A DNA stretch of 64,000 nt from a virus: IMG/VR virus record IMGVR_UViG_3300021387_002242, positions 2,864 through 66,863 of that record. One strand, written 5' to 3'. How positions within the stretch are numbered: the stretch's first letter is position 1; each line of letters opens with the position of its first letter. Position numbers and translations under genes: made by a program. The notes below the pieces were generated by a model. It searched no databases. It had not been told where the DNA came from and worked only from the letters and a program-made list of their open reading frames with translations. Below are positions 13,524 through 52,239 of the stretch, in pieces.

Positions 13524-13561
13524 GGGTAACGCTCCTTTCCGGTGGCTCATTTGATAGTGTG

Positions 13562-14552: not shown

Positions 14553-15722
14553 CTAATCAGCGTTTTTTTGCAGGTACTTGGACAACTTGGATGCTCCATC
14601 CTTGCCCGCGTCTTCGGTGTAAGCCATATAGACATCCAGGGTCATGCTCGCCTTTTTATGGCCCAGGTTGTGCTGTACGGTTTTGACGTCCATACAGGAC
14701 CGCAGAGCGGCAACAGCATAAGAGTGCCGGAGGTCATGCGGGTGTAGCTCTGGAATCCCTATATCCATACCAACGCGGCGAACACAGGTAAAAATGGTCT
14801 TCTCACCGTGGGCTTTCCCATCACGCTGACGGAACACCAGGTCGTGACTCAACTCATCATCACACCAGTCTCCACCCTTTGCTATGCGCTGTTCCGCTTG
14901 CTTGCGGCGTTGATCGCGCAGTATATCTATAGCTTCCTTTGGGAGATGAATCAAACGCTCCTCCTCATATTTCGGCGGGGTTATGCGCTGAATACTAATG
15001 GACTTAGCATGGAGCTGACGCTGGACAAACATTGTGCCGACATCGAAATCAACGTCAGACCAGCGCAGCCCGCGCACTTCTCCGATTCGCAACCCGGTAT
15101 AGAGCATGAAAATCAGCTCGTTCCCGTACCTGGTTTTATTGGCGGCAGCGATGAAGTCTTGGAACTGTGTCCGCTCGATGATGTGGAACTTCTTAACCTT
15201 GCCACGGGAGACGGACACAAGTGCTGCCGGGTTTTCTTTAATCAGCCTGGATTCGATAGCGCAGTTTAACGCGGTTCTCAAGATGCGGCAGTAATTGCTG
15301 ATGGTAACCTGGGACAGACCACGATCTTGCATGGACGAAACCATACGGCGAACGTGGATAGGGGCGAGTTTAGACAGCTTCACGTCACCAATGGTCGGCT
15401 TGAAGTTATGGTTCAATATAGATTTGTACTTGATAACTGTGCGCTCGGAGTTTTCGCCCTGATAATCGGCAATCCAGATGTCCAACCATTGCGAGACAGT
15501 CATTTTTGACGGTTCACGCCAGATGCCGGAATCCAGCTCGTGTAGCTGTGTGCGCAGCTTTGTGGTAACTTCTTTCTCGGTTTTGGCATAAACGGAGCGC
15601 TGCCGGCCATCGGGAGTGGTGTACCTGGCTTCCCAACGGCCATCGGAGCGTTGACGGATGGAACCCATGCCGTTATTCGACCGGGAGTTCTTCTTCTTCG
15701 GCAAAATAACGCCACCTTTCAT
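14553..15722 (-). CDS. int: tyrosine-type site-specific integrase
   Basis: N-terminal arm-binding-like GSIRQRSDGRWEARY, core-binding and catalytic domains with the R...HDLRH...Y pattern (HPHDLRHSYA...LGH...Y). Confidence 0.85.
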   Translation of the reverse strand: MKGGVILPKKKNSRSNNGMGSIRQRSDGRWEARYTTPDGRQRSVYAKTEKEVTTKLRTQLHELDSGIWREPSKMTVSQWLDIWIADYQGENSERTVIKYKSILNHNFKPTIGDVKLSKLAPIHVRRMVSSMQDRGLSQVTISNYCRILRTALNCAIESRLIKENPAALVSVSRGKVKKFHIIERTQFQDFIAAANKTRYGNELIFMLYTGLRIGEVRGLRWSDVDFDVGTMFVQRQLHAKSISIQRITPPKYEEERLIHLPKEAIDILRDQRRKQAEQRIAKGGDWCDDELSHDLVFRQRDGKAHGEKTIFTCVRRVGMDIGIPELHPHDLRHSYAVAALRSCMDVKTVQHNLGHKKASMTLDVYMAYTEDAGKDGASKLSKYLQKNAD

Positions 15723-34866: not shown

Positions 34867-35061
34867 ATGAACACCCGCACACGGCAGAAGATCAAGGCAG
34901 AACTGCGCCGGGAGAACCCGGATGTGATGGCAACAATCCGCGATGAAGGGCCTTGGAGGCAAATTCTATTTGTGCCGCGAAACGAGATTCGGGCGTACAA
35001 GCAGCGATACGGCGACAACATCATATTCTGGGACGAAAAGGAGGAAAGACAATGGAAATGA
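34867..35061 (+). CDS. hypothetical small basic protein
   Basis: RBS ggaggtaagaacATG. Confidence 0.3.
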   Translation: MNTRTRQKIKAELRRENPDVMATIRDEGPWRQILFVPRNEIRAYKQRYGDNIIFWDEKEERQWK

Positions 35062-35699
35062 GGACTTATGACAAGATCGAAACCCTGTATGCTCGCGATA
35101 TTGACGGGACCAAACAACTGATTCCCGGGAAATATCGCAATCCTACGGTCGAATTTCTGAAAGATAACCGGTGGCAATGGACTGAAAAAGTGGACGGCAC
35201 CAACATCCGTGTATTCTGGGACGGGCACAGCGTGACATTCGGAGGCAGGACTGACCGCGCACAGATACCCGCGCACCTGGTTAACCGACTAAATGAGCTA
35301 TTCGGTGGAGAGCAGAACGCGCAGGTATTCGAGCAGATGTTCGGAGAGCTGGAAGTCATTCTCTACGGCGAGGGGTACGGCGTAAAAATCCAGAATGGCG
35401 GCGGGTACATCTCCGATGGTGTCGATTTTGTTCTGTTCGATTTGTACATCAACGGGAACTACCAGAGCAGGGAAAACGTGGAAGGTTGCGCAAAAGCGCT
35501 TGGAGTAAAAGTTGTGCCTATCGTTGGAGAGGGAACACTTGAGGAAGCGGTGGAGTTCGTCAAGAGCCATCCCAAAAGCGTGATCGCCCAGGGCGATATC
35601 GACATGGAAGGTGTTGTGTGCCGGCCGGCTGTTGAGATGTGCGACAGGTGTGGAAACCGGATAATCGTCAAGATTAAGTGGCGGGATTTCAAGAATTGA
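35052..35699 (+). CDS. ATP-dependent RNA/DNA ligase-like nucleotidyltransferase (RNA_ligase family)
   Basis: Motif I EKVDGTNIRV, motif III VLFDLY, motif IV MEGVVCRP and motif V IVKIKW are in the correct order and spacing; RBS aaggaggaaagacaATG. Confidence 0.6.
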   Translation: MEMRTYDKIETLYARDIDGTKQLIPGKYRNPTVEFLKDNRWQWTEKVDGTNIRVFWDGHSVTFGGRTDRAQIPAHLVNRLNELFGGEQNAQVFEQMFGELEVILYGEGYGVKIQNGGGYISDGVDFVLFDLYINGNYQSRENVEGCAKALGVKVVPIVGEGTLEEAVEFVKSHPKSVIAQGDIDMEGVVCRPAVEMCDRCGNRIIVKIKWRDFKN

Positions 35700-40198: not shown

Positions 40199-40571
40199 AT
40201 TCGGGACTGAAACATTAGGCACTATTCCGCGCGGATGGCAATGCCCTATCTGTAAACATGTATATGCTCCATTTGTAGTGGAGTGCATGCATTGTGGGAA
40301 GAACGATAGCAAAGCTGAAGTCATAGTAGACGTAAAACCGGAACAAAAGCTGCAGGAAAAAGATAACGATCTGACAAACACAGGGAATCCAGGATGGGAA
40401 TTGACGTTTAAGACATGCGAGAAATGCGGTGGGAGAATGTTATATAAACTGGATGAGATGCTCACATCACTGCAGCCGAAATGGATATTCAAATGCCGGG
40501 AGTGTGGACATATTCAGTATGAACCGTATAAGCTGTATTACCCGTTAAGTGAGAACAATGAAAAGAATTAG
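40191..40571 (+). CDS. Zn-ribbon protein
   Basis: CPICKHV...CMHCG ... CEKCGG...CRECGH. Confidence 0.4.
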   Translation: MCEFGTETLGTIPRGWQCPICKHVYAPFVVECMHCGKNDSKAEVIVDVKPEQKLQEKDNDLTNTGNPGWELTFKTCEKCGGRMLYKLDEMLTSLQPKWIFKCRECGHIQYEPYKLYYPLSENNEKN

Positions 40572-41162
40572 GGCAACACAATGCACCCGATACGTGTTAA
40601 TATGCAAATGTGCACATCCGGGGCCACGTCGTCCCGGTGCATTATGCGAGCGGTAGATGAATAGTCCCGCTCACAGGTTGTGCTACCCGGGGACTTTCCC
40701 AAAGCGGTGCTCGGGAGCGGGATTTAAACAAAGAGTGTGGGGCTTTACAGTTTTCACCCATACCGCCTCCTTTTCACGTTGGTGGGGACGGGTGAGGCAA
40801 CAAGAAAACAACGCGACACCGGAGCGCGTAATCTCCGGAGACATGCCGTTGCTGGACAGCTTGCGCCCAGGGGAACCGCCTGGACTGGCTCCCGGTTCGA
40901 CACCGGGGACGGCACCACGTGACTTCTGGCATGGGATTTGTCATTGGTCACCTCCTTTCCAGGCTATAAGCCGAGCCGCATACTTCTTGTTGGGCTTTGC
41001 AGATTCACCAGCAAGCGGTATGGGTGCCCGCCTGTCGTCACCGTGTGGTTTGCCGGGACGATCAAAGGCGGGCTAAAAGGGTAAGAGCTTTGCACGCGAG
41101 CCGAGAGGCAGCGAACCACGCAAGGACATTTATACAGGCCAGAGTAAAGATCTGGCCACGTG
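40572..41162 (+). ncRNA. candidate large structured non-coding RNA (ROOL/GOLLD-like?) immediately upstream of the tRNA
   Basis: About 590 nt, GC-rich with many short complementary segments and no credible ORF (the track ORF 40657-41076 is P/G/R-rich and not coding-like); abuts a tRNA in a prophage, the characteristic context of ROOL/GOLLD RNAs. Confidence 0.3.
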
Positions 41163-41238
41163 GGAGATTAGCTCAGTAGGTAGAGCAGCAGGCCGTTAAC
41201 TTGCGCGTCCGGGGTTCAAGTCCCTGATTTCCCGCCAG
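41163..41238 (+). tRNA. tRNA, probably Asn (GTT anticodon), with encoded CCA
   Basis: Cloverleaf folded by hand: acceptor GGGAGAT/ATTTCCC, D-arm GCTC-AGTAGGTA-GAGC, anticodon arm GCAGG-CCGTTAA-CTTGC, T-arm CGGGG-TTCAAGT-CCCTG, discriminator G plus CCA. Position 33 is C rather than U, which is unusual. Confidence 0.65.
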
Positions 41239-41497
41239 CCCAGTATACAATAGGGTTCCAAGTGTAATGCGCCACTTGAACAAAAAGCACGGGTGTCCCG
41301 GGATAATGCTTGTATGCGGCAAAAGCCCGGGCCGATCTTCAGACGTTGTGGGGTAAACAGCGTCCACCAACACAATGCCGGGTAACGCGAGGGTGTTTAC
41401 ACCAGCCCGCGAGGGTGGTAGTCGCGCCGGATTGTTTAGGCGGTTAATGGCGTACAGAGATACGCCGACCGCCTTTTTTCATGCTGTAGGAGGCTCC

Positions 41498-41610
41498 ATG
41501 AAAATCATACAGAAACCAACAGAGCAGCTTATACCTTACGCGGCAAATGCCAAGCTGCATGATGAAACGCAGATCGCAAATGTAGCGAACAGCATAAAAA
41601 ATGCCCCCGA
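41498..41610 (+). pseudogene. 5' remnant of a ParB-like nuclease-domain gene, truncated by a cassette insertion
   Basis: MKIIQKPTEQLIPYAANAKLHDETQIANVANSIK is about 80% identical at nt level to the 5' end of 41986-43272, then diverges into the cassette terminator. Confidence 0.5.
41528..41599. repeat. direct repeat (about 72 bp, about 80% identical, 26-nt perfect core) with 42016-42087, flanking the inserted cassette
   Basis: aagctgcatgatgaaacgcagatcgc core is identical in both copies. Confidence 0.5.
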
Positions 41611-41618
41611 AGGGGGGC
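41593..41618 (-). terminator. terminator of the leftward cassette
   Basis: cccccgaagggggg hairpin with a T-run on the minus strand. Confidence 0.4.
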
Positions 41619-41620
41619 GG

Positions 41621-41896
41621 TTAGCCAACGTTGGGAAGCCGGTAGGGGTAATGCCCGTACAAAGCACGGTAGGCTTCGGTGTATGGCGCGTAGCCGTGGC
41701 CTTCCAGCAGGTACTGCCGGGTCTTTTCCAGCAGGGCGATCATGAACTCGCGGTGCATGGTGACCGTAACCCGCGTCCGAACCTTCATGGGTTCGACTTC
41801 GTACATACCGAAGTCGGTCATGCCGTACTTCTCGGCGACATTGAACAGGGCGGCAAGGGCATCACGGTGAATGTTGAAGGTGATGGTAGACGTCAT
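41621..41896 (-). CDS. hypothetical protein (cassette cargo)
   Basis: 91 aa, downstream of promoter copy 4. Confidence 0.45.
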   Translation of the reverse strand: MTSTITFNIHRDALAALFNVAEKYGMTDFGMYEVEPMKVRTRVTVTMHREFMIALLEKTRQYLLEGHGYAPYTEAYRALYGHYPYRLPNVG

Positions 41897-41927
41897 GGTA
41901 ACAACCCCTTTGCTTTTTGTTGTAAAC

Positions 41928-41975
41928 AGTATAGCATAAAAAATGATGCAAAGTCAAGCTAAGAGTATGATAAAC
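41928..41975 (-). promoter_or_regulatory. conserved leftward promoter/operator element, copy 4 (TTGACT-N18-TATACT)
   Basis: Reverse complement reads gtttatcatactcttagcTTGACTttgcatcattttttatgcTATACT. Confidence 0.55.
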
Positions 41976-41985
41976 GGGGTATGAA

Positions 41986-43272
41986 ATGAACATAGTCAGT
42001 ATGCCAACGGTAGACCTCATACCGTATTCCGCAAACGCGAAGCTGCATGATGAAACGCAGATCGCTAACGTTGCGAACTCAATAAAACGCTTCGGGTGGC
42101 AACAGCCCATAGTGGTAGACGACAACAATGTGGTCGTCATAGGCCATTGTCGTCTGCTTGCGGCGAAGCGGCTGGGACTACAGGAAGTCCCAGTGACGGT
42201 TGCCAGCGGTTTGACGGATGAAGAAATCCGAGAACTGCGAATCGCAGACAATAAGACCAATGAAAGCGCCTGGAACTGGGAAATGCTGGAACAGGACAGG
42301 GCTGGTCTTGCGTTTGACGGCTTCGAGTTCGAGTGGGTGAATCCGGACGGTGAGGAACCGGCATTCGAGGAACCAGAGGCCATAGAGGATAACTTCGACG
42401 AAGAAGATATTCCCGAAGAATCCGACATCAAATACGGCGATGTTTTCCTGCTCGGCCGGCACAGATTGGTCTGCGGTGACAGCACGAATATTGACGACGT
42501 AAAGAAGCTGATGGACGGAGCACAGGCTGATCTGTTCCTGACAGACCCGCCGTATAACGTGGACTACCATGGCAGCACTGGCATGACGATAGCGAACGAC
42601 AGCATGGAGGATAGCGCGTTCAGAGCGTTCCTCACGGATGCTTTCAGTAACGCAAACCTGGTCATGCGTCCCGGGGCTGCTATTTATATATGGCATGCAG
42701 ACAGTGAGGGCTTCAACTTCCGCGCCGCTATGCGTGAAGTAGGCTGGAAGCTGCGCCAGACACTAATCTGGGTAAAGAATGCCCCGGTGCTAGGCCGCCA
42801 GGATTACCTCTGGAAACATGAGCCGGCACTTTATGCGTGGAAGGAAGGAACTCACTACTTCACCAGCGACAGGACAAACAAAACAGTCTTTGACGACAGA
42901 ATCGACATAAAGAAACTCAAGAAGGAAGAAATGAGAGCGCTTCTTGAGAAAATCTTTGCCGACAGAGTGCTGACGACGGTCTTGTACGAGGACAAGCCGC
43001 TGGTGAACGATCTCCACCCAACCATGAAACCGATTCGGCTCATGGCGCGGTTGATTGCCAACAGTTCACAACCCGGGTGGCGGGTGCTTGACTTGTTCGG
43101 TGGCAGTGGTTCAACGCTGATGGCTTGCGAGCAGCTCGGGAGAACATGCTACACTATGGAACTCTCCCCGACTTACTGTTCCGCAATCATAAAGCGCTAT
43201 ATCAAGTTCACCGGCGAGGATGTGTTCTTACTCCAGGACGGAGAAAAAATACAATATATCCCGGAGGATTGA
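41986..43272 (+). CDS. ParB-like nuclease domain fused to an N6-adenine/N4-cytosine DNA methyltransferase
   Basis: N-terminal ParB-N (IPY.ANAK.H...IANSI..FG..QPIVV...VV.GH.RL.AAK.LG); C-terminal DPPY (LTDPPYN) and FGGSGST AdoMet-binding motifs. Confidence 0.75.
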   Translation: MNIVSMPTVDLIPYSANAKLHDETQIANVANSIKRFGWQQPIVVDDNNVVVIGHCRLLAAKRLGLQEVPVTVASGLTDEEIRELRIADNKTNESAWNWEMLEQDRAGLAFDGFEFEWVNPDGEEPAFEEPEAIEDNFDEEDIPEESDIKYGDVFLLGRHRLVCGDSTNIDDVKKLMDGAQADLFLTDPPYNVDYHGSTGMTIANDSMEDSAFRAFLTDAFSNANLVMRPGAAIYIWHADSEGFNFRAAMREVGWKLRQTLIWVKNAPVLGRQDYLWKHEPALYAWKEGTHYFTSDRTNKTVFDDRIDIKKLKKEEMRALLEKIFADRVLTTVLYEDKPLVNDLHPTMKPIRLMARLIANSSQPGWRVLDLFGGSGSTLMACEQLGRTCYTMELSPTYCSAIIKRYIKFTGEDVFLLQDGEKIQYIPED

Positions 43273-43389
43273 GCCGAAGCACCAGGAGGCCGCAAGAAGC
43301 CGTGTGACGGGCCTAGATTTGAGACAAACAAAGAGACGCCCCCGAGCGAACAAGGCGCGTCAGGGGCGAATGTGGGGCACTGTGAGCCT

Positions 43390-43542
43390 TTAGACGGAGA
43401 ACACAACGTTGTTGGTCTGCGTGTTGACGATTTCTACGACGGACGTATCAAATACGTTGCCGAGCAGGTCAGACAGGACGCGGGTCGAGTAAAGGCCGGT
43501 GTATTCGTCGTAGAAGGTAATCTGGATCTGGGAAGCGTCCAT
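43390..43542 (-). CDS. hypothetical small protein (50 aa)
   Basis: RBS aaaggaggattacccATG; below the track cutoff. Confidence 0.3.
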   Translation of the reverse strand: MDASQIQITFYDEYTGLYSTRVLSDLLGNVFDTSVVEIVNTQTNNVVFSV

Positions 43543-43566
43543 GGGTAATCCTCCTTTCGATTGCGG

Positions 43567-43716
43567 TTAGTCGTCTTCGCTGAGAATTCCGAGTTCAACA
43601 GCGAACCAGAAAAAGTCGGCGTTGCACCTCATGCCATTTGGAAGCTCAATGCTGGCTTCGTTCCTCACCTGGTTTTTGAGATACCAGCGACGCCAGCGGG
43701 TGGGGATTGTGTACAT
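43567..43716 (-). CDS. hypothetical small protein (49 aa)
   Basis: RBS gaaaggaaaccg; below the track cutoff. Confidence 0.25.
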   Translation of the reverse strand: MYTIPTRWRRWYLKNQVRNEASIELPNGMRCNADFFWFAVELGILSEDD

Positions 43717-43746
43717 CACGACGGTTTCCTTTCTGCCCTTATGATT

Positions 43747-44010
43747 TCAAGGGTGGGTGAAGTCCAGGCAATCAAGCAATTGGGTGACGGTAGAGCGCGT
43801 CTTGCAGGTCAGATCTTCAACCAGGCTGATCTTGACGGCGATGCTCTTAAAATCGTTACGGATGGCTTCGACGACCTCGCGGGTCGGATATTCTAGGTCA
43901 GGGCAGGAAAAGAAATTCTGGATATCATCGAGCAGAGAAGCGGCTTTCACCATATCCCAATGGATGGTGGTTAAGATGTCTTCGTAGTCGATCTTGATGC
44001 TGGTTGCCAT
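43747..44010 (-). CDS. hypothetical protein
   Basis: 87-aa ORF in the leftward cassette. Confidence 0.35.
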   Translation of the reverse strand: MATSIKIDYEDILTTIHWDMVKAASLLDDIQNFFSCPDLEYPTREVVEAIRNDFKSIAVKISLVEDLTCKTRSTVTQLLDCLDFTHP

Positions 44011-44061
44011 GGTAGTTCATCCTTTCTACCGGGATTATGGCTCCCGGTTGGTCTTGGTTGA

Positions 44062-44400
44062 TTAGGCGGCGGGGGCGATCTGAGTGTCGCTGTAGACGAA
44101 GTAGGACTGAATCCGGGTGCCCTTCTTGGTGGTCGGGTCGGCAACCTCGACCTTGAAGGTGGCCTCGCTGGTGTGTATCACCATACGGCCCAGCGCTTGC
44201 CAACCGGCCCAAGTGTGATACTCTTCTTCGACACCGGCAGCTTTCGCGGCGGCATCGACGATCTCGGCGTTAGCGGCCTGGACCTTGATCCAAGCCCACG
44301 CGGCGCGAAGCGCGTCCGCAAACGTGGCAGCGGCTTTCTTGCTGGCTTTGCGATACAGGCTCCAAGCCTTGTACATCAGCTTCGACAGATCGTACTTCAT
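44062..44400 (-). CDS. hypothetical protein
   Basis: 112 aa; first gene after promoter copy 5; RBS gaaaggagaaacc. Confidence 0.4.
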   Translation of the reverse strand: MKYDLSKLMYKAWSLYRKASKKAAATFADALRAAWAWIKVQAANAEIVDAAAKAAGVEEEYHTWAGWQALGRMVIHTSEATFKVEVADPTTKKGTRIQSYFVYSDTQIAPAA

Positions 44401-44445
44401 GGTGGTTTCTCCTTTCGTTGGTCGGTGCTCTTTCGTTCTGGGTAC

Positions 44446-44492
44446 ATATTACACTGTATAAAGTACAAAGTCAAGCTAAGTGTATGATAACT
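44446..44492 (-). promoter_or_regulatory. conserved leftward promoter/operator element, copy 5 (TTGACT-N17-TAATAT)
   Basis: Reverse complement reads agttatcatacacttagcTTGACTttgtactttatacagtgTAATAT. Confidence 0.6.
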
Positions 44493-44550
44493 CCTGAAAT
44501 TGCGTTGCTATTCTCACCTTGATAAGGTACAATATACTTGAGGTGATTTT

Positions 44551-44781
44551 ATGGCAATGACAGAGGCAAGGAAAAGAGCGAACAAGAAGTGGAACGATGC
44601 TCATATGAAGGAATTTTATGAGCGGGTGACGATGATCGTTCCAAGGGGCCAGAAGAAAACCATAGAGATGCGGGCAAAAGAAATCGGAACAGGACTGAGC
44701 GGGTACCTGAATATGCTGGTAAAGGCCGATCTTGGTGTGTCCGATGATGAATGGAAGGGCATAGACACAAAGCAGCCATAG
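44551..44781 (+). CDS. small DNA-binding-like protein
   Basis: 76 aa, basic N-terminus; RBS-less but coding-like. Confidence 0.35.
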   Translation: MAMTEARKRANKKWNDAHMKEFYERVTMIVPRGQKKTIEMRAKEIGTGLSGYLNMLVKADLGVSDDEWKGIDTKQP

Positions 44782-44912
44782 GGGCTACGGATAAAAGAAT
44801 AGGCAAAAACGAAAAGGACAGACGTAGTGATGCGCTTGTCCTTTTGTTAGCATAAACAGCAAGATAGATGTGGCGATTGCCGATTGACTATAAACGCTAG
44901 GGGGAGTAAGAT

Positions 44913-45677
44913 ATGGGCAGGGGAAGGAGCGGACGGGTAGCGACCCGGTCAGCGTCGAGAGCATCGACAACCCCAAGGGCACAGCAGCGCATGACACCGC
45001 AGGAGCTGGACGACTTCTTCCAGAGGGCGAGCGACAATGACGTAGACCAGATGCATGTTGCATTGAGGCAGGAGCGTATGGATAATGACAACCGCAGCAA
45101 TGATAACGATGTGCAACGATTCTTTCATTATATCGGCTGGTCTGAAAACACGCCGCAGGCTCTTGATGAAACGCAGTTCCAGGCGGCGTGGAATGCTGCA
45201 GGACGTCCTAAAAAGCTGTACCATTCTGATAAAGATGCGGGTGGTGCAACGGCGCAGGATTTTGCACAGCAGTACTTCGGCAATGGCTATGATTTCAGCG
45301 GCAACCGATATCGCCAATATATTAGCAATGGCTATTATGGCGGTGGTACATACTTTGCAGATAGTGCTATAGACTCAAGATATTACGGAACTAACCAGTT
45401 CCGTGGATTTTTGAATAACAATGCCAAAGTAATAAAGGTCGGTAGGCTGCAATCCCAATACAATGCATATGAAGCGGCACATCCCGCGTTTAAACGAATG
45501 ATGTCAAAAATATCCACAGGATACGGTGGCAATGCTGAAAAACTATCGATTTATGCCGCGATGAAGGGATATAACGTTATCGAAGAAGGTAGCGGATACT
45601 ACGTGGTGCTGGATAGAAGCGCGACTACAGTATCCACAAAGACTAGGAGCACAAGAGGCATAAGGAGCAATTGGTAA
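44913..45677 (+). CDS. protein with an MGRGRSGR Arg/Gly-rich N-terminal module (paralog of the ART-like protein; C-domain unassigned)
   Basis: Shares the N-terminal MGRGRSGR...S/T-rich leader with 45948-46787; RBS gggggagtaagatATG. Confidence 0.45.
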   Translation: MGRGRSGRVATRSASRASTTPRAQQRMTPQELDDFFQRASDNDVDQMHVALRQERMDNDNRSNDNDVQRFFHYIGWSENTPQALDETQFQAAWNAAGRPKKLYHSDKDAGGATAQDFAQQYFGNGYDFSGNRYRQYISNGYYGGGTYFADSAIDSRYYGTNQFRGFLNNNAKVIKVGRLQSQYNAYEAAHPAFKRMMSKISTGYGGNAEKLSIYAAMKGYNVIEEGSGYYVVLDRSATTVSTKTRSTRGIRSNW

Positions 45678-45690
45678 GGAGGAACAGAAA

Positions 45691-45882
45691 ATGGCGAAAG
45701 CTACGAATGGACGGGAACGGAGCGATCAGATGATCTGGCTGCGCAGAGCGGCAGAGGGCAAGCTGCCCAGGGTCACGCCGGAGATGAAAAAGGATCTGAT
45801 GGCTAACAAGGAGCTGCGGCAGCTCGCCGTGAAGAACGGTGTGCTCCCGGCATCGAAGCCGGCGAAAATGACCAAGAAGTGA
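45691..45882 (+). CDS. small basic protein
   Basis: 63 aa, K/R-rich; followed by a terminator. Confidence 0.35.
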   Translation: MAKATNGRERSDQMIWLRRAAEGKLPRVTPEMKKDLMANKELRQLAVKNGVLPASKPAKMTKK

Positions 45883-45895
45883 ACAACCAGGTACA

Positions 45896-45926
45896 CCAGG
45901 CAGGGTTAGACACCCTGCTTTTTTTG
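45896..45926 (+). terminator. rho-independent terminator
   Basis: cagggttagacaccctg hairpin plus ctttttttg. Confidence 0.55.
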
Positions 45927-45947
45927 TGCCCATAAGGCGGTGAGAGA

Positions 45948-46787
45948 ATGGGACGTGGAAGAAGCGGCAGGAGTTCTGGCACCAGGCAGCAGACGGTGAC
46001 GCTTCCAACCTGGGGTGAGGCTTTTGGTGACGGCAACGATTACCAGTCGACCCGTGATGTCGATCACGTTTCAAGAACTGTTACGCGGCGGCTGCAGCAC
46101 GACTGGGATCAGTTCGCGGATGATTATCAGTCTGGCATAACTTCTATGGATGTACAGCGATTGATGAAAGACTACGACCCGTATACGGATTCTTTGTACG
46201 GGTATGTCAGAACATCGAATTCGTTTGCTATAAACGAAAAGCTGTACGACGATCAGAACGTCAATAAGACTGATGACCAGATCTTCACCCGGCGAGATCA
46301 AAGGGGCGTGCTTAGAGATTTGCAGACAGTCCAAACTCTGGACAAGGCGATCAATAGTCATACCACTAAGCGTAATGCCACCTACACGCGGTTCTCTACA
46401 CCGGCAGCAGTTCAAGCGTTGTACGGTTTGAATAACCAGCAGATGTCGATCCTGCAAAATGCCAGGGGCATGAACAATCAACAGCTCAAAGCACTGAATG
46501 ATTCATTTGCAGGTAAAACTAGTTACTCTCGAGCATATACATCTACTTCCGCAAACCGATCTATGAATGCTTTCGGCAACTTGAACGCGCGGCATTCCAG
46601 AAACATGGTGTTCGAAAGAAAGCTGTACATGCCACAGGGTACAAACGCTTTTGCGGTTAAGCAGAACGCGCAAGAGAGCGAGGTCATCTTCGGCCGGCAT
46701 GCGAACACTAGGCTGATGAAGGTCACGGTTGCGAGCGACGGACACATCGTGCTACATGAGATGTTCACCGGTTATAATAGGCATTGA
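45948..46787 (+). CDS. ADP-ribosyltransferase-like effector (R-S-E class) with the MGRGRSGR N-terminal module
   Basis: Y-x-STS (AYTSTSANRS) and Q/E-x-E (QESEVIF) motifs with upstream aromatic-Arg (YGYVR) fit C3/VIP2-type ART signatures. Confidence 0.55.
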   Translation: MGRGRSGRSSGTRQQTVTLPTWGEAFGDGNDYQSTRDVDHVSRTVTRRLQHDWDQFADDYQSGITSMDVQRLMKDYDPYTDSLYGYVRTSNSFAINEKLYDDQNVNKTDDQIFTRRDQRGVLRDLQTVQTLDKAINSHTTKRNATYTRFSTPAAVQALYGLNNQQMSILQNARGMNNQQLKALNDSFAGKTSYSRAYTSTSANRSMNAFGNLNARHSRNMVFERKLYMPQGTNAFAVKQNAQESEVIFGRHANTRLMKVTVASDGHIVLHEMFTGYNRH

Positions 46788-46843
46788 CTTTCTGACGAAG
46801 GTGTGCCATAATCCGTGTGAGGAAACAATAGGAGGAAAACACA

Positions 46844-47029
46844 ATGCCCAGAAAGAATGACGAGAGAGCGGCTACAAAGCGGTTTGTAGACCAGCCGGGC
46901 CAGTGGATCGATACAACCCCGGCAAGCGTGAAGAAGCGCCAGGAAAAGGCGTGGCAGAAGCTCCAGGCGATGCTGAAAGAAAACCCCATCGATACCAAGG
47001 GTACCAGGGGCGGCAGCAAGAAGAAGTAA
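46844..47029 (+). CDS. small basic protein
   Basis: 61 aa, K/R-rich, followed by a terminator; same layout as 45691-45882. Confidence 0.35.
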   Translation: MPRKNDERAATKRFVDQPGQWIDTTPASVKKRQEKAWQKLQAMLKENPIDTKGTRGGSKKK

Positions 47030-47052
47030 AACTCACCGACATTATAACGGAC

Positions 47053-47083
47053 AAAGCAGCGGCATAAAACCCGCTGCTTTTTG
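47053..47083 (+). terminator. rho-independent terminator
   Basis: agcagcggcataaaacccgctgct plus ttttg. Confidence 0.55.
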
Positions 47084-47102
47084 CGCCCTTTGAAATAAAA
47101 CC

Positions 47103-47786
47103 ATGACGATAACAGGAATTGCGGTTGATGCTCTGAAAAGGTACAACAATAACGCAAAGGAACATCCACAGGAGCAGATCGACAAGATCGCTGAGAGCAT
47201 CCGTCAATTTGGTTTCAGGCAGCCGATAGTTGTTGACAGCAGCAACGTGGTTGTTATTGGACACGGACGGCTTCTTGCAGCAAAGGCTCTGGGGATGAAG
47301 CAAGTCCCGTGCGTGGTTATTGACGACCTGACAGAGGACGAGATCAACGCACTTCGCCTGATAGACAATAAGCTCAACGAAAGCAAATGGGACTTTTCCG
47401 CTCTTGAAGATGAACTCGCCACTATCGTCGACATCGACATGTGGGATTATGGATTCGAGCCTTTCAGTGAGCAGGAAATGGAAGCGGCTACGGCGGCATT
47501 TCAGGAGCGCGTAGAAGCCATGGCGCAGGAAACGCGCCCAGACGGCCAGGAAGGGCCATATGAGCGCGGCTACACTGTAGGGCAAAGAGAGACAAGCCCG
47601 TATGCAACGGCAGGAAATTACGGCGTTTCTGGACGTCCAGCGAATCAGCTCCAAGCGACATACCCGCACGACGAATACGGATATGTAGATGAATATGGGC
47701 GGCAGATCGTGGGAGAGCGCAGCCTGATAGAGGCAAACCGGGAGTACCGGTATGTATGCCCACGGTGCAAGCATCGGTTCAACTGA
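47103..47786 (+). CDS. ParB-like nuclease-domain protein
   Basis: ParB-N motifs (AKEHPQEQIDKIAESIRQFGFRQPIVVD...GHGRLLAAKALG); C-terminal Zn-ribbon CPRCKH. Confidence 0.7.
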   Translation: MTITGIAVDALKRYNNNAKEHPQEQIDKIAESIRQFGFRQPIVVDSSNVVVIGHGRLLAAKALGMKQVPCVVIDDLTEDEINALRLIDNKLNESKWDFSALEDELATIVDIDMWDYGFEPFSEQEMEAATAAFQERVEAMAQETRPDGQEGPYERGYTVGQRETSPYATAGNYGVSGRPANQLQATYPHDEYGYVDEYGRQIVGERSLIEANREYRYVCPRCKHRFN

Positions 47787-47797
47787 AAAAACCCAGC

Positions 47798-47998
47798 TCA
47801 GTGCTGGGGCAGGTACACGGGGTATTTACCATATATGGCCTTGAATGCTTCTGCGAACGGAGTAGGGTCACCGGTATCGCAGAGAACTCTAAAAGCCTTA
47901 CGCAAAGCCCGCTGCTTTTTCAGCTGCCGAATCTGCTTGATGGCATCGTAGTTCTGCATTGTTGCGGCCTCCTTTCGGGTCAAGTTAATGGTTTGCAT
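47798..47998 (-). CDS. hypothetical small protein
   Basis: Leftward cassette cargo. Confidence 0.4.
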   Translation of the reverse strand: MQTINLTRKEAATMQNYDAIKQIRQLKKQRALRKAFRVLCDTGDPTPFAEAFKAIYGKYPVYLPQH

Positions 47999-48027
47999 CC
48001 TTTCTTGGTTGTTGAAAACGATGGGGC

Positions 48028-48264
48028 TTAGTCTATGAAGTAAATTCCGTTTTCTTCGTGGAAGCAGGTGTTGCCGAACTCGTTTCTGATGATAAAGTCT
48101 GCATCTTCTTTCGTAGCAGGGAGTTCGACGCCATTCCCATAGATTGCATCACCATCGTGGTTGATGTCGTTTAGGTCGTGGACATAAAGCCCTACATACG
48201 TCTCGCCGTCGTAGATGTACTTGATCTCGGTGAACTCGATGTTGTTGATAATGACAGTATTCAT
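48028..48264 (-). CDS. hypothetical small protein
   Basis: First gene after promoter copy 6. Confidence 0.4.
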   Translation of the reverse strand: MNTVIINNIEFTEIKYIYDGETYVGLYVHDLNDINHDGDAIYGNGVELPATKEDADFIIRNEFGNTCFHEENGIYFID

Positions 48265-48309
48265 TGTGGTAACCTCCTTGATCCGTTGCGTTTCCTTTGG
48301 AACGATTAC

Positions 48310-48356
48310 ATACTACATCAGAAATAATGTAATGTCAAGCTAAATGAATGATAACT
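48310..48356 (-). promoter_or_regulatory. conserved leftward promoter/operator element, copy 6 (TTGACA-N17-TAGTAT)
   Basis: Reverse complement reads agttatcattcatttagcTTGACAttacattatttctgatgTAGTAT. Confidence 0.6.
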
Positions 48357-48367
48357 GCGAGGACGAG

Positions 48368-48883
48368 ATGAACGTAAGGAACATAGACCCGAATGCGGTG
48401 ACGCTCTACGAGAAAAACGCGAAGTTTCACCCGCAGAGCCAGATAGACCGCATAGCAAAGAGCATAGAGCGGTTCGGGTTCAGACAGCCGGTGGTAATTG
48501 ACGGCAACGGCGTGGTGATTGCTGGGCACGGGCGCGTCCTTGCTGCCAGGCAGATCGGGCTGACAGAGATACCGTGCGAGATTGCCGACGACTTGACACA
48601 GGAACAGGCAAAGGCGCTCCGTTTGATAGACAACAAGCTCAACGAAAGCAAGTGGAAGGACAGAGCGCTCAAATTCGAGCTGCTGGACATCTCTCCGGAG
48701 ATCGGCCTGGACGAGTTCGGCTTTGATATGCCTGATATGCTTCCGCGCGACGAATCTACGGATAATGTGCCGTATCAGGACGAGGATGTGCTGCGCGGCG
48801 CTTACGAATATTCTGGAGAGAGTTTCAGCGATGACCAATTCCAGTGCCAGTGCCCGGAGTGCGGGTTCAGATTCAACCCATAA
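48368..48883 (+). CDS. ParB-like nuclease-domain protein
   Basis: ParB-N motifs; C-terminal CQCPECG Zn-ribbon. Start placed after the promoter element, because the ATG at 48344 lies inside it. Confidence 0.65.
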   Translation: MNVRNIDPNAVTLYEKNAKFHPQSQIDRIAKSIERFGFRQPVVIDGNGVVIAGHGRVLAARQIGLTEIPCEIADDLTQEQAKALRLIDNKLNESKWKDRALKFELLDISPEIGLDEFGFDMPDMLPRDESTDNVPYQDEDVLRGAYEYSGESFSDDQFQCQCPECGFRFNP

Positions 48884-48941
48884 ATACCCGTGGAAATGGT
48901 GGCTCAAAGACCTAGATAGCGTCCCGAAAAACGGACACAAA

Positions 48942-49907
48942 GTGTTCAGCTGCTTCTCCTGCGGCGGCGGTTCGTCGATGGGCTATAAGCTGGCAGGTTA
49001 TGAAGTGGTCGGAAACGTCGAGATAGACCCACGGGTCATGAAGCTGTATCAGGACAATCTCCACCCGAAACACCCGTTCTTGATGGATGTTCGGAACTTT
49101 CTGGAAATACCGGATAGTTCGCTGCCTCAAGAGCTTTTTACGCTGGACGTTTTGGACGGCAGCCCGCCATGCAGCACGTTCAGCTTGCTCGGCGAGCGGG
49201 AAGATGCGTGGGGGAAAGAAAAGGTATTCAGAGAGGGACAGGCAAAGCAACGGCTGGATGACTTGTTCTTCTTTTTCATAAAGATCGCGGACAAGCTCAA
49301 GCCCAAGGTGGTTGTAGCGGAGAATGTCGCCGGCATATTGAAGGGCAACTCCAAGGGCTATGTCAATGAGATTATCAAAGAGTTTGACGCGGCTGGATAT
49401 GCCGTTCAGGTATTTCTGCTTGACGCGGCGCGAATGGGTGTGCCCCAGATGCGACAGCGGGCGTTCTTCATTGCCAGGAGAAAAGACCTTGGTCTGCCGA
49501 AGGTTGTGCTGGATTTCAACGAAAAGCCTATTCTTTTCGGGGAGGTACGGACACCGGAAGGTCTGGACTTGCCTCCGAATGGCAAGCTCATAAGGCAGCT
49601 CAAGTACATGAGGCCGACAGACAAGTACGTCAAGGACATCGTGAAGCGGCTCTACGGCGCAGAGACGAACTTCAGCACGACGATCAACCACGATCACTAC
49701 GTTGCACGCACGGTGACGGCCGGAGGCTCGTCGGTACGTGGGTACGACAAGAAGATGTGTACTGACGGCGACTTCGTGAACATGCAGACATTTCCGCAGG
49801 ACTATGACTTCCAAGGTCAGCAGGTACGCTATATCTGCGGCATGAGCGTTCCTCCGGTAATGATGGCCCAGGTGGCAAGCGCAATCAACGACCAAATGTT
49901 CAGGTGA
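48942..49907 (+). CDS. DNA (cytosine-5)-methyltransferase
   Basis: Motif I FSCFSCGGGSSMG, motif IV PPCSTFS, motif VI ENV(AG), C-terminal motifs. No ATG is in frame; the GTG at 48942 is the only candidate start, so the start is uncertain. Confidence 0.7.
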   Translation: MFSCFSCGGGSSMGYKLAGYEVVGNVEIDPRVMKLYQDNLHPKHPFLMDVRNFLEIPDSSLPQELFTLDVLDGSPPCSTFSLLGEREDAWGKEKVFREGQAKQRLDDLFFFFIKIADKLKPKVVVAENVAGILKGNSKGYVNEIIKEFDAAGYAVQVFLLDAARMGVPQMRQRAFFIARRKDLGLPKVVLDFNEKPILFGEVRTPEGLDLPPNGKLIRQLKYMRPTDKYVKDIVKRLYGAETNFSTTINHDHYVARTVTAGGSSVRGYDKKMCTDGDFVNMQTFPQDYDFQGQQVRYICGMSVPPVMMAQVASAINDQMFR

Positions 49908-49911
49908 AAAC

Positions 49912-51012
49912 ATGTATCTGGAAATACGCCGGGTGGAAGACATACACCCATACGAGAACAACCCCAGAATCAACGATGACGCTGTGCGTCCCGTGGTGGA
50001 ATCCATCAAAAAGGACGGATATCGGGCGCGAATCATCGTGGACAAAGACGGGGTTATCATTGCGGGCCATACGCGATACAAGGCAATCCAGCAGCTCGGG
50101 TGGAAGGAAGTCGAAGTGTGGGTGGCAGACGACATGTCGCCCAAGCAGATCAAGGATTACCGAATCCGTGACAACCGCACGAGCGACTATGCTCGCTGGG
50201 ACTTCGAGGCTCTGGAAAAAGAGATTACGCAGTTTCAGCTCGACCCAATGGATTTCAGCTTTGATATGCCGGAGCCGGAGCGAGAGGGCGTAGAGAGCGA
50301 CTACAGACCGTTCTCAGAGCGTGACGATGCCGAACAGATGGTCGATGAAGACCAGGTATCGCGGCTTACGCATAACGTCTTTGAGAATTTCGAGATGGAC
50401 TTCGAGCCGGAATACACCGGAAAGTACGGCATCCCGAAGATGGCACCGACGCAGATGACCGGCGATAAGTTCATGCGGTTCTGCGACTGGCGCGGGGTTA
50501 CAGACCACGAAAAGTACATAGCGCACTTTTACTACGATGACTTCAAGTTCATCAAGGCGTGGCGTGACCCGGATTACTACATCGAGCGCCTAAAGTGGTT
50601 CAAGGCGGTAGTCGCCCCGGATTTCAGCTTGTACACTGATTTCCCGGTGGCGCTGCAGATACTTTCCTGTTACCGGCGACAGTGGGTAGGCGCATACTGG
50701 CAGAGCTTGGGAATAGACGTTATCCCGGATGTGGTCTGGGGCGACAAAGCAAGCTATGAGTTCTGCTTCGACGGCATACCCAAGCACAGCACAGTCGCGG
50801 TTTCCAGCGTGGGCGTAAAGCTGGATGAAGACTGGAATGGCAAGAGTGACAGCTTGTTCAGGAAGGGCTACGAAGAAATGATCAAGCGGCTGGAACCGAC
50901 GACGATCATGTTCTACGGGGACATCCTAGAAGGGCTGGAAGGGAACATCATTCAGATACCGTCATACTACGCACAACGGCGGGATGGAAGCTGGAAAGAC
51001 GTCTACAAATAG
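49912..51012 (+). CDS. ParB-like nuclease N-domain fused to a DUF4417-like C-domain
   Basis: HPYENNPRIN...IIAGHTRYKAIQQLG ParB-N; C-terminal W/Y/F-rich domain resembling DUF4417. Confidence 0.55.
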   Translation: MYLEIRRVEDIHPYENNPRINDDAVRPVVESIKKDGYRARIIVDKDGVIIAGHTRYKAIQQLGWKEVEVWVADDMSPKQIKDYRIRDNRTSDYARWDFEALEKEITQFQLDPMDFSFDMPEPEREGVESDYRPFSERDDAEQMVDEDQVSRLTHNVFENFEMDFEPEYTGKYGIPKMAPTQMTGDKFMRFCDWRGVTDHEKYIAHFYYDDFKFIKAWRDPDYYIERLKWFKAVVAPDFSLYTDFPVALQILSCYRRQWVGAYWQSLGIDVIPDVVWGDKASYEFCFDGIPKHSTVAVSSVGVKLDEDWNGKSDSLFRKGYEEMIKRLEPTTIMFYGDILEGLEGNIIQIPSYYAQRRDGSWKDVYK

Positions 51013-51014
51013 CG

Positions 51015-51380
51015 GTGAACGATATGGGCAACAGCAATCGAAAATATACGACGAAGGTTGATGCACCACACTACGAGCCAACCAACAAGAATGTGAGGCT
51101 TGAAGATTGCTACGATCGGAGCAAATACGACAAGCTTATAAGTTCCATCATGCTATCGGATGTAACGCCGCGAGAGAAAGAGTTTCTTTGCCTTGCAGCG
51201 ACGCGACACTTGGCATTTGACTATAGGGAAATCGCAAACTATTACGCGAACAATGCCAGCGCGACGATGCAAAAGCTGATGGAGGAATCAGCGCTTGTCA
51301 TTATCGACTATGAGGATGCGATAAAGCAAGGCTATGTCAGGCTGTCGAAGCACCTTGAGAGGATAATGGAAAATGCGTAA
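51015..51380 (+). CDS. hypothetical protein
   Basis: 121-aa ORF. Confidence 0.35.
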   Translation: MNDMGNSNRKYTTKVDAPHYEPTNKNVRLEDCYDRSKYDKLISSIMLSDVTPREKEFLCLAATRHLAFDYREIANYYANNASATMQKLMEESALVIIDYEDAIKQGYVRLSKHLERIMENA

Positions 51381-52239
51381 CTATGCTGTATTCATTATCT
51401 CACATGGCAGGAGCGATAACGTCAGGACATATCCGACCTTGCGCAAGCATGGGTATACAGGCCGAATAATCATTGTTATCGACAATGAGGACGAACAGCA
51501 GGAGAAATATATCCGGAGATTTGGCAGCGAGAACGTATTCATTTTCGACAAAAAAGCAGAAGAGGCCGAAATGGATACAGCCGATATTTCTGGAAACATG
51601 CATTGCGCTGTGTTTGCGAGGCATTACTGCTTTAAGCTGGCAAGGGAGTTGGGCTTTGACTACTTTATCGAGTCAGATGATGACTATGTTCGCTTTGCTT
51701 ACAGGGAAGAGCAGGACGGCAAGCTGAAAGAATACCATTGCTACAAGCTTGATGAAGTGTTCGAGGCAATGTTCCAGTTTCTTGACGATACCAACGCACT
51801 TTCAGTCGCACCGGCACAGGATGGAGACTATCTTGGTGGAGCAAAAAGGCCATTCTGGATTAACCGAGTGAGCCGAAAGTGCATGAATCTGTTCTTTTGC
51901 CGAACAGACAGACCGATACACTTTGTTGGGAGAATCAACGAAGATGCGACAACATACACCAGATATGCACAGGTTGGCGAGCTGTTCTTTACGGTGGCTG
52001 ATTGGTGCTTGAAGCAAATGCCGACCCAGCTGCAAAGTGGTGGAATGACAGAGGCTTATCTTGATGTTGGCACATACGTCAAATCATTCTATACGCTGAT
52101 GTTCAGCCCATCCTGCGTGACGATATTCGCAATGGGCTGCAACAATGATGATGACGGTAATTACAGGCTGCACCACAGGATAAACTGGCGAAAATGCACG
52201 CCTATGATTATCAGCGACAAGTACAAGAAGCCGATATGA
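51373..52239 (+). CDS. glycosyltransferase-like protein (GT-A-type DxD motif)
   Basis: Rossmann-like N-terminus FIISHGRSDNVRTY and an ESDDDY DxD motif. Confidence 0.35.
   Translation: MRNYAVFIISHGRSDNVRTYPTLRKHGYTGRIIIVIDNEDEQQEKYIRRFGSENVFIFDKKAEEAEMDTADISGNMHCAVFARHYCFKLARELGFDYFIESDDDYVRFAYREEQDGKLKEYHCYKLDEVFEAMFQFLDDTNALSVAPAQDGDYLGGAKRPFWINRVSRKCMNLFFCRTDRPIHFVGRINEDATTYTRYAQVGELFFTVADWCLKQMPTQLQSGGMTEAYLDVGTYVKSFYTLMFSPSCVTIFAMGCNNDDDGNYRLHHRINWRKCTPMIISDKYKKPI

Follow-up and report, generated by a model that had tools for sequence, protein, structure and literature searches.

A probable non-coding RNA operon in a phage, assembled from small structured RNAs, tRNA-like pieces and one tRNA

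Two phage RNAs are among the nearest points of comparison for the locus described here: GOLLD, which is phage-encoded beside transfer RNA (tRNA) islands, has a variable linker that sometimes carries tRNAs and is of unknown function (PMC12286853), and ROOL, first found in rumen data, which occurs in phages and prophages near tRNAs and is about 580 nucleotides (nt) long (PMC5737381). A first-pass annotation of a 64,000-nt stretch of the viral record IMGVR_UViG_3300021387_002242 (hereafter, the window) had interpreted a region at 40572–41240, joined to a tRNA, as one candidate ~590-nt RNA of this kind. Comparison with related loci gives a different picture: the conserved blocks are separate and are combined and ordered differently across 21 loci, and the flagged region is the first two-thirds of a ~900-nt array (40574–41479) with a promoter-like site at one end and a terminator at the other. 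This array is best explained as a phage non-coding RNA operon: a chain of small structured RNAs, tRNA-like pieces and one tRNA, and not a single giant RNA. It begins with a leader RNA, denoted element 1, and includes a second structured domain, M_B. What stands of the earlier interpretation is a conserved, non-coding RNA structure on the + strand, in a phage and joined to tRNA genes, which is supported by covariation in relatives.

Covariance models of Rfam 15 were run on the whole window at gathering thresholds, on 40300–41700 at E ≤ 10, and on 15 related loci at E ≤ 5 or E ≤ 1. At gathering thresholds, the window yielded only the tRNA and an unrelated hammerhead ribozyme. The ROOL (RF03087) and GOLLD (RF01998) models had no match at gathering score in the window or at E ≤ 10 in 40300–41700, and in the 15 related loci only tRNAs and two sub-threshold matches to the DUF3800-VIII motif were found, with no ROOL or GOLLD. 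Membership in either family is therefore not supported; the proposed resemblance in context holds insofar as the locus belongs to a phage and has tRNAs nested among its modules, and fails with respect to the family match. Like GOLLD, the array belongs to a phage, has the neighbourhood of a tRNA island and carries tRNAs in its variable part (0–4 between conserved modules in 21 loci). However, in GOLLD the 3′ domain is universally conserved and there is a single global fold, whereas the array has a constant 5′ module of ~155 nt and is most variable in its 3′ parts. With ROOL, it shares the phage context near tRNAs (the window encodes an integrase, replication proteins, a terminase and a portal protein), and the ~580 nt of ROOL are about the size estimated in the first pass, but ROOL is a multi-junction, pseudoknotted RNA, whereas the array strings together separate hairpin domains and intervening tRNAs.

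The DUF3800 motifs are small single domains, several of which Weinberg et al. reportedly found to be followed by a terminator. Near-threshold matches to them lie inside the arrays, and the copy in the window is likewise followed by a terminator; nevertheless, element 1 and M_B match none of them, and the three scores obtained are below gathering. With the put RNA of HK022, the EAR RNA of Bacillus and the boxA-containing leaders of rrn operons, the array shares the placement of a structured RNA right after a promoter and before terminators and a long operon, and with the rrn leaders, in addition, a position at the head of a long untranslated, highly structured transcript. This likeness is positional: element 1 is larger than put, and similarity in sequence or structure is not established. 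Phage tRNA arrays with extra stable RNAs resemble the present one in having a tRNA cluster and additional small RNAs within one transcription unit, and phage tRNAs that escape anticodon nucleases (PMC10264068) resemble its tRNA with an unusual anticodon loop (C33), but the present array consists mostly of non-tRNA sequence. Finally, a 2023 survey of IMG/VR by Fremin et al. listed 8,495 unnamed candidate structured RNAs, four of them upstream of adenine methyltransferase genes (PMC10690425), and the present motif may already be listed there without description. On comparative grounds, at least two RNA domains, the predicted structures of element 1 and M_B, are new to Rfam 15 and supported by covariation; the locus itself is rare, with about 21 copies, apparently from one habitat.

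Structure and conservation of the array

The features of the array and of its 3′ border are as follows (related loci are denoted by L and a number throughout).

40574–40603, +, predicted promoter-like site: CAACACAATGCA, 12 nt, then TAATAT
40610–40642, +, P0, 5′ hairpin of the leader RNA: GUGC...CCGGG / CCCGG...GCAU
40644–40798, +, element 1 core, a structured RNA without Rfam match (40610–40798 with P0)
40819–40838, +, leader hairpin CCGGAG/CUCCGG, ending 5–6 nt before the tRNA-like element
40844–40917, +, degenerate tRNA-like element: acceptor stem, T arm CCCGG-UUCGACA-CCGGG, 3′ end GACGGC-A-CCA
40947–41074, +, M_B, second structured RNA: CACCUCCUUUC at 40949–40959, GGCUAUAAGCC hairpin, variable hairpin, long helix
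41079–41135, +, M_F: GUAAGAGC, helix CUUUGC/GCAAGG around ACGC...GCGAACCAC, then GACAUUUAUA
41137–41157, +, leader hairpin GGCCAGA/UCUGGCC, ending 4 nt before tRNA-Asn
41162–41237, +, tRNA-Asn(GUU) with C33, discriminator G and encoded CCA (41235–41237)
41342–41369, +, M_C, 7-bp minihelix GACGUUG/CAGCGUC followed by CACCA, identified by reading the sequence, with no statistics attached
41367–41445, +, DUF3800-VII-like RNA motif (RF02967; 35.7 bits, gathering score 36.2, E = 5 × 10−5, full model 1–90)
41439–41479, +, terminal hairpin resembling an intrinsic terminator: GGCGGUUAAUGGCG...CGCC(G/A)ACCGCC and a U-tract
41488–41600, +, ribosome-binding site (RBS) AGGAGGC (41488–41494), ATG at 41498 and a ~100-nt remnant that duplicates the beginning of the ParB-methyltransferase gene, itself intact from 41986 on

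In the window, element 1 is thus followed by a leader hairpin, the tRNA-like element, M_B, M_F, the second leader hairpin, tRNA-Asn, about 100 nt without relatives, the CACCA-ended minihelix, the DUF3800-VII-like motif and the terminal hairpin.

Element 1 measures ~155–190 nt. Its core begins with the P1 hairpin, ACAGG, P2, an invariant GCGGGA and an A-rich linker, and continues with P3 with a pyrimidine-rich loop, an invariant GCCUCCU (40765–40771) and P4, a short covarying stem closing the invariant loop GUUGGUGGGGAC (40778–40789); GCCUCCU can also pair with a variable strand 3′ of P4. In an alignment of 21 sequences, 94.5% of the cells are paired, and both-sided changes occur in 15 of the 24 tested pairs, a level reached by none of 500 shuffles and by no slid register (8 at most); the G-U pairs are compatible with RNA of the + strand only. 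A covariance model built from this alignment (R1) assigns the window copy 138.8 bits (E = 4 × 10−37), and finds no other copy in the window and exactly one per locus. Element 1 has no Rfam match at E ≤ 10 in 40300–41700. The periphery is more flexible: an equivalent of P0 with different stem sequences is present in eight loci (L033, L002, L035, L050, L054, L055, L056 and L057) and P0 is absent in five (L004, L051, L059, L062 and L063), and P1 is missing in L036, L038, L039, L041 and L061, where everything from AGG onward is kept. Wherever the 5′ end of an array is complete, element 1 comes first, and it is the only module common to all arrays.

In M_B, the long helix reads GCCCGCCU...AGGCGGGC, and RNAalifold applied to six copies predicts 30 pairs, 11 of them with compensatory changes. 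Covariation among homologous phage regions, named in the first pass as a check, thus supports structure in both element 1 (15/24 pairs) and M_B (11/30). M_B occurs in two subtypes and has no Rfam match. Its 11-mer CACCUCCUUUC, which we take to be identical to the 3′ tail of Firmicutes 16S rRNA, occurs once in the window, compared to 0.01 expected occurrences; CACCTCCTTT is found once per related locus, always within the array, and the corresponding tract of L035 reads GGAUCACCUCCUUUCU. The helix of M_F is rewritten from locus to locus (CCUGUC/GGCAGG in L004, CCAGCC/GGCUGG in L033, CCGUGG/CCACGG in L055), and its apical part in L033 holds a DUF3800-VIII-like insert (34.2 bits, gathering score 40.2). 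DUF3800-VIII (RF03075) also scores 37.6 bits against 40.2 in L063. The DUF3800-VII-like motif of the window is 0.5 bit short of its gathering score and is accordingly unlisted in the scan at gathering thresholds; no gene for a DUF3800 protein was detected among 38 open reading frames (ORFs) of the window scanned against Pfam.

Several other assignments for parts of the array were considered and rejected. The strings UAGAUGAAU...GUCC...ACAG in element 1 and GUAAGAGC in M_F suggested RNase P; UAGAUGAAU...ACAG and GUAAGAGC are reminiscent of E. coli M1 RNA, but there is no Rfam match, and the UAGAUGAAUAGU hairpin loop is unconserved, being replaced in L050, L055, L056 and L057. A T-box leader was likewise discarded for want of a model match: T-box (RF00230), riboswitch and RNase P models gave none in 40300–41700 at E ≤ 10, and the T-box and riboswitch models none over element 1 in the 15 related loci. 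A pairing of CGCCUCCU with GGUGGGGACG proposed by RNAalifold was not retained because both sides are invariant and it competes with the covarying P4. No transfer-messenger RNA, in one or two pieces, was called by ARAGORN or matched in Rfam (window and 40300–41700).

The relatives came from uncultivated viral and metagenome contigs. In 50,697 deposited phage genomes, a distant-mode search returned tRNA-level similarity only (6 records), and the 126-aa zinc-ribbon protein encoded immediately upstream of the array (stop codon at 40571) had no relatives in viral contigs. Relatives of the ParB-methyltransferase in IMG/VR led to L002 and L004, where ~200 nt homologous to 40640–40846 directly abut tRNA-Ser; DNA patterns from the conserved core then matched 13 true viral contigs and 17 metagenome contigs. 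After removal of duplicates, 21 non-identical array copies remained, apparently from rumen-type samples judging by their Joint Genome Institute (JGI) sample identifiers. Among 185,579 GTDB species genomes, a strict pattern had 0 matches and a relaxed pattern 6, none of which was confirmed by model R1; the two that were read (L068 and L069) seem fortuitous and lie in what is apparently protein-coding sequence. Another pattern match, L065, was set aside as an unrelated array of GGTGGGGAC iterons; in this viral contig, positions 1340–1700 contain GGTGGGGAC(A/G) iterons on both strands, probably an origin or another protein-binding site.

All 21 copies are on the strand of the downstream genes. 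Behind element 1, the cassettes are interchangeable: tRNAs with leader hairpins, CCA-ended minihelices, M_B and DUF3800-type motifs. The number of tRNAs per array ranges from 0 to 4, in varied order (none in L039 and L041, four in L004 and L051); T-arm-only hairpins and CCA-ended minihelices are present in some arrays and absent in others; in L055, a protein gene follows immediately after element 1; and in L061, element 1 is directly followed by the terminal hairpin, the RBS and the ATG of the ParB gene. Because the presence, order and subtype of modules vary among loci, there is no conserved global architecture of the kind that defines ROOL and GOLLD. Conservation instead applies to the design, in which a promoter-like site is followed by element 1, the cassettes, a terminator and the first gene of the ParB-methyltransferase/DNA-modification group. 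In at least 10 loci, the terminal hairpin is immediately followed by a ParB_N gene, and in the relatives the AGGAGG and ATG of that gene are within 10–25 nt of the hairpin. Read from its sequence, this is a conserved, strand-specific, structured and modular RNA locus at a fixed genomic position.

The claim that 40572–41240 contains no credible gene proved correct. An independent gene call on an identical ENA contig left 40572–41620 empty, with the next gene at 41621 on the opposite strand, and the 139-aa ORF at 40657–41076 has no match in Pfam and is disrupted in relatives by tRNA genes and by indels that are not multiples of three. The G+C richness is also real (0.575–0.578 over 40600–41199, compared to 0.43–0.50 just upstream). 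Folding energy was abandoned as evidence for structure because the z-scores of the 590 nt do not discriminate between the strands (−2.6 for + and −2.5 for −); the actual evidence is the covariation in relatives.

At the 5′ border, the motif CAACACA(A/G)TGCA with a TATAAT-like hexamer 11–12 nt further on recurs in L035, L038, L041, L054, L057 and L061, and the variant CATCAAAGTGCA in L059 and L063; the transcript would start near 40610. In L036, the gene upstream of the array encodes an activator-type regulator with sigma-70 region 4/DUF1492, which fits a promoter of the late type. Of 19 loci checked, 8 (L033, L002, L055, L059, L054, L061, L062 and L063) have, directly upstream of the promoter-like motif, a gene for a conserved protein of ~160 aa with the C-terminal sequence RRKFFWIL(R/S)E; its sole match is phrog_11237, of unknown function, and it may be an activator of the array promoter.

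At the 3′ border, the terminator-like hairpin noted earlier at about 41441–41478 is present, with the hairpin at 41439–41473 and the T-tract at 41474–41479. It reads GGCGGU-UAAU-GGCGUA-CAGAGA-UACGCC-G-ACCGCC-UUUUUU, a G+C-rich stem followed by a U-tract, as in an intrinsic terminator. A simple terminator scan did not flag it, we think because of the internal loop. About 11 other loci have a nearly identical hairpin at the end of their array (among them L033, L050, L051, L035, L041, L002, L039, L057, L061 and L042, with GGCGGUUAAUAGCG in L054); the alternation between U-A and U-G preserves pairing only as + strand RNA, and the copy in L061 is without a U-tract.

tRNA-Asn, tRNA-like pieces and leader hairpins

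The tRNA is complete, as had been described, with the anticodon GTT, C33 and an encoded CCA, according to ARAGORN, which calls tRNA-Asn(GUU), to Rfam (RF00005, 57.2 bits against a gathering score of 29) and to our reading of the sequence. U33 is nearly universal in elongator tRNAs; here, the anticodon loop is C32 C33 G34 U35 U36 A37 A38, and all the other anticodon loops read among the array tRNAs have U33. Altered anticodon loops that let phage tRNAs escape anticodon nucleases have been documented (PMC10264068), and the C33 tRNA-Asn could, by analogy, be a nuclease-resistant spare. The RNA-ligase-like gene that the first pass suggested might go with such a role is real (34953–35699; PF09414, E = 2.3 × 10−19) and lies 5.5 kb from the array; no kinase-phosphatase partner was seen.

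The strong stem adjoining the tRNA, GGCCAGA/TCTGGCC, was confirmed, with −13.3 kcal/mol in the 34 nt upstream of tRNA-Asn, and is explained by a general property of these arrays: 15 of the 25 array tRNAs have a hairpin of −10 kcal/mol or lower in the 34 nt upstream, compared to 4.7% of control 34-mers, and most such hairpins end a few nt before the tRNA. The hairpin at 40819–40838 aligns with GCCGGGG...CCCCGG, which precedes tRNA-Ser in L004, L032 and L033, with a compensatory change from A-U to G-C.

The element at 40844–40917 is tRNA-like, not a tRNA. It has a defective D arm and the anticodon loop GGAACCG, without U33, and was identified neither by default ARAGORN nor by the Rfam tRNA model at E ≤ 10; at a 90% threshold, ARAGORN reports it as tRNA-Val(AAC) with a 2-bp D stem. 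Its homologue in L059 is a minihelix, GUCGUUU...CCCGG-UUCAACU-CCGGG-GGACGAC-ACCA, with one compensatory acceptor pair. The design of M_C, GGCGUUGAGCG.AUCAGCGU(U/C)CACCA, recurs in L033, L002 and L054 and twice in L041; in L059, the helix is present and ends in CCACGA. Two further observations concern such pieces elsewhere. In L036, ~50–190 nt downstream of element 1, a tRNA-like sequence that ARAGORN does not call has normal acceptor, D and T arms and ~60 nt in place of the anticodon loop region, and isolated T-arm-like hairpins, e.g. GCAGUUCGAUUCUGC, are repeated outside tRNAs in the 3′ array parts of L002, L050 and L054.

Possible roles of element 1 and the array

We put at about 0.5 the probability that the array yields one transcript that is processed at tRNA-like punctuation and that element 1 is a cis-acting leader controlling read-through. 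The array would be made as a single primary transcript, which host RNase P and RNase Z would cut at the tRNAs and tRNA-like elements to release stable small RNAs. Element 1 would decide in cis whether the polymerase reads through the untranslated array and the terminator into the downstream genes, by processive antitermination or attenuation, with the invariant GCCUCCU and the GUUGGUGGGGAC loop as putative functional contacts. A cis role is favoured because element 1 is the only universal module and is always promoter-proximal, and because the terminal hairpin usually leaves no room for a promoter before the ParB gene; we infer it, therefore, from position.

Several observations weigh against this model. 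Transcript ends, processing and read-through are all deduced from sequence, and a sigma-70 scan did not call the promoter-like site, its −35 element being weak. L004, L036, L038 and L059 lack the terminal hairpin or have a different one, with element 1 unchanged in all four, and a specific interaction between element 1 and the terminator (CCGCC with GGCGG) was dropped for that reason; the invariant motifs of element 1, for their part, show no variation from which covariation could reveal a partner. The association with the ParB-methyltransferase gene is slightly inflated, given that 2 of the 21 loci were first found through that gene. Finally, L014/L064 contains a possible distant relative, sharing the GGGGCUU loop and UCCUCC-GC-AUUGGUGGGGAU-GU, which, with a promoter and a terminator to itself, resembles a self-contained small RNA gene of ~120 nt; the next gene there has a separate consensus promoter, and such a stand-alone gene favours a trans-acting role.

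A trans-acting role is possible, if rather doubtful on present evidence: the processed modules would be small RNAs or decoys acting on host targets. Under this explanation, GCCUCCU of element 1 and CACCUCCUUUC of M_B would mimic the anti-Shine-Dalgarno tail of 16S rRNA, binding the RBSs of mRNAs or soaking up factors or toxins that act on the 16S 3′ end, and the CCA minihelices and the C33 tRNA-Asn would be decoys or nuclease-resistant replacements against tRNA-targeting defences. Beyond the L014 relative, it is consistent with the independent, recombining modules, the single occurrence of CACCTCCTTTC in 64 kb compared to 0.01 expected (with GGAUCACCUCCUUUCU in L035), the recurrence of minihelices ending in (C)ACCA, the RNA-ligase-family gene at 34953–35699 and the precedent of nuclease-evading phage tRNAs (PMC10264068). 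However, in the second subtype of M_B, CCUCC appears, by reading, to be paired with an internal AGGAG(G) and may be a plain helix strand, the pairing of GCCUCCU with the strand 3′ of P4 offers a similar role within element 1, no target or defence gene was identified, and the tRNA fragments could be decayed tRNA genes. Another possibility, one large ornate RNA of ~0.9 kb in the manner of GOLLD or ROOL, multi-domain, with tRNAs and small motifs in variable loops and perhaps forming a higher-order assembly, appears unlikely. TRNAs and the DUF3800-VIII-like motif do lie between or inside conserved helices (in the M_F apical part of L033; tRNAs between M_B and M_F in L004), element 1, M_B and M_F co-occur in several loci, and the linkers of GOLLD sometimes hold tRNAs, with both ROOL and GOLLD near phage tRNA islands (PMC12286853, PMC5737381); but even permissive thresholds gave no ROOL or GOLLD match in 16 loci, long-range covariation linking one module to another was not found, and the architecture is inconstant, with element 1 alone in L061, no M_F in L039, varied order and a protein gene inside L055.

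Regulation by sensing fares less well still. Element 1 would be a riboswitch- or T-box-like riboregulator that controls the terminator or RBS of the ParB-methyltransferase gene, its invariant loop (5′-UGGUG-3′) binding a CACCA 3′ end or a small molecule; the 5′-leader position in every locus, the DNA methyltransferase as the usual downstream gene, the complementarity of the minihelix CACCA to UGGUG, the GCCUCCU of L061 only ~85 nt from the complementary AGGAGG of the gene and, in L014, a strand that pairs with UUAUUCCUC and overlaps the terminator stem, as in attenuators, all fit this scheme. Yet no T-box or riboswitch family matches, element 1 and the site it would regulate are as much as 900 nt and several tRNAs apart, the complementarities span 5–8 nt with both sides invariant and so lack covariation support, and CACCA modules are absent from several arrays, which together make it improbable. 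Most improbable is that the signal belongs to DNA (a packaging site, replication origin or ParB-like operator) or to a mis-called protein gene: many inverted repeats, a position beside ParB_N genes and upstream of the terminase, and the nearly equal folding of the − strand (z of −2.5 vs −2.6) could point to the former, and the existence of the 139-aa ORF to the latter, but among the compensatory changes are many G-U pairs, which in the opposite strand would turn into A-C mismatches, the tRNA genes, promoter-like site and terminator are all in the + orientation, there are no iterons, and the ORF matches no family, is not maintained by relatives and falls in a region that the gene caller left empty. 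We also regard as unlikely, taken jointly, two bolder versions of these ideas: a counter-defence or translation-hijacking island, in which the mimics of the 16S tail and of tRNAs would serve as decoys or resistant spares against host nucleases and toxins directed at the ends or anticodon loops of tRNAs or at the 16S 3′ end, or a sensor in which the UGGUG loop of element 1 would bind CACCA ends and gate late gene expression.

Genomic surroundings and implications

By its gene content (integrase, replication module, large terminase and SPP1-type portal), the window is that of a temperate siphophage of the Firmicutes type; by terminase, the closest isolates are Clostridioides phages, at ~35–37% identity. 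Immediately downstream of the array, 41528–41599 is 82% identical to 42016–42087, and the layout of 41498–41985 suggests that a gene was replaced or inserted there, with a remnant 5′ end left behind. Between the two 5′ copies of the ParB-methyltransferase gene lies a − strand mini-cassette with a 91-aa ORF (41621–41896) without family match, a promoter-like site at 41957–41928 (TTGACT-18-TATACT with TG) and a terminator at 41618–41603. The ParB-methyltransferase gene is followed by three more ParB_N genes, a C5 methylase, a TAGT glycosyltransferase, the large terminase and the portal. The DNA-modification block at 41986–52239 comprises a ParB_N-N6/N4 methylase (41986), an ADP-ribosyltransferase-like gene (45948), ParB_N genes at 47103 and 48344, a C5 cytosine methylase (48723), ParB_N-DUF4417 (49912) and a TET-associated glycosyltransferase (51373); such a block, with four ParB_N paralogues in 10 kb, suggests cytosine hypermodification.

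Elsewhere in the window, a type II hammerhead ribozyme is found at 1747–1811 on the − strand (41.2 bits, gathering score 37, E = 5.5 × 10−5), and L059 has matches to the Pistol ribozyme at 381–450 and 918–976 (38.0 and 34.4 bits, gathering score 34.5), so that these phages seem rich in self-cleaving ribozymes. Near the integrase gene (14553–15722, −), there are genes for an ArdC-N and zincin metallopeptidase protein of the anti-restriction type (6668–7534, −), an ADP-ribosylglycohydrolase (10859–11818, −) and an amidoligase (12543–13550, −).

To our knowledge, none of the GOLLD, ROOL and DUF3800 motifs of phage tRNA islands has an established function. The arrangement described here is unusually readable, with one constant 5′ module and swappable cassettes, the whole leading into the genes for DNA modification and packaging, and suggests that the many unrelated DUF3800-type motifs may, like the tRNA-like fragments, be exchangeable components of a single type of phage RNA operon. 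L061, at ~230 nt, is a compact system for telling read-through control from action in trans, and the 16S-tail-like and CCA-minihelix motifs lead to concrete, testable hypotheses on RNA mimicry by phages.

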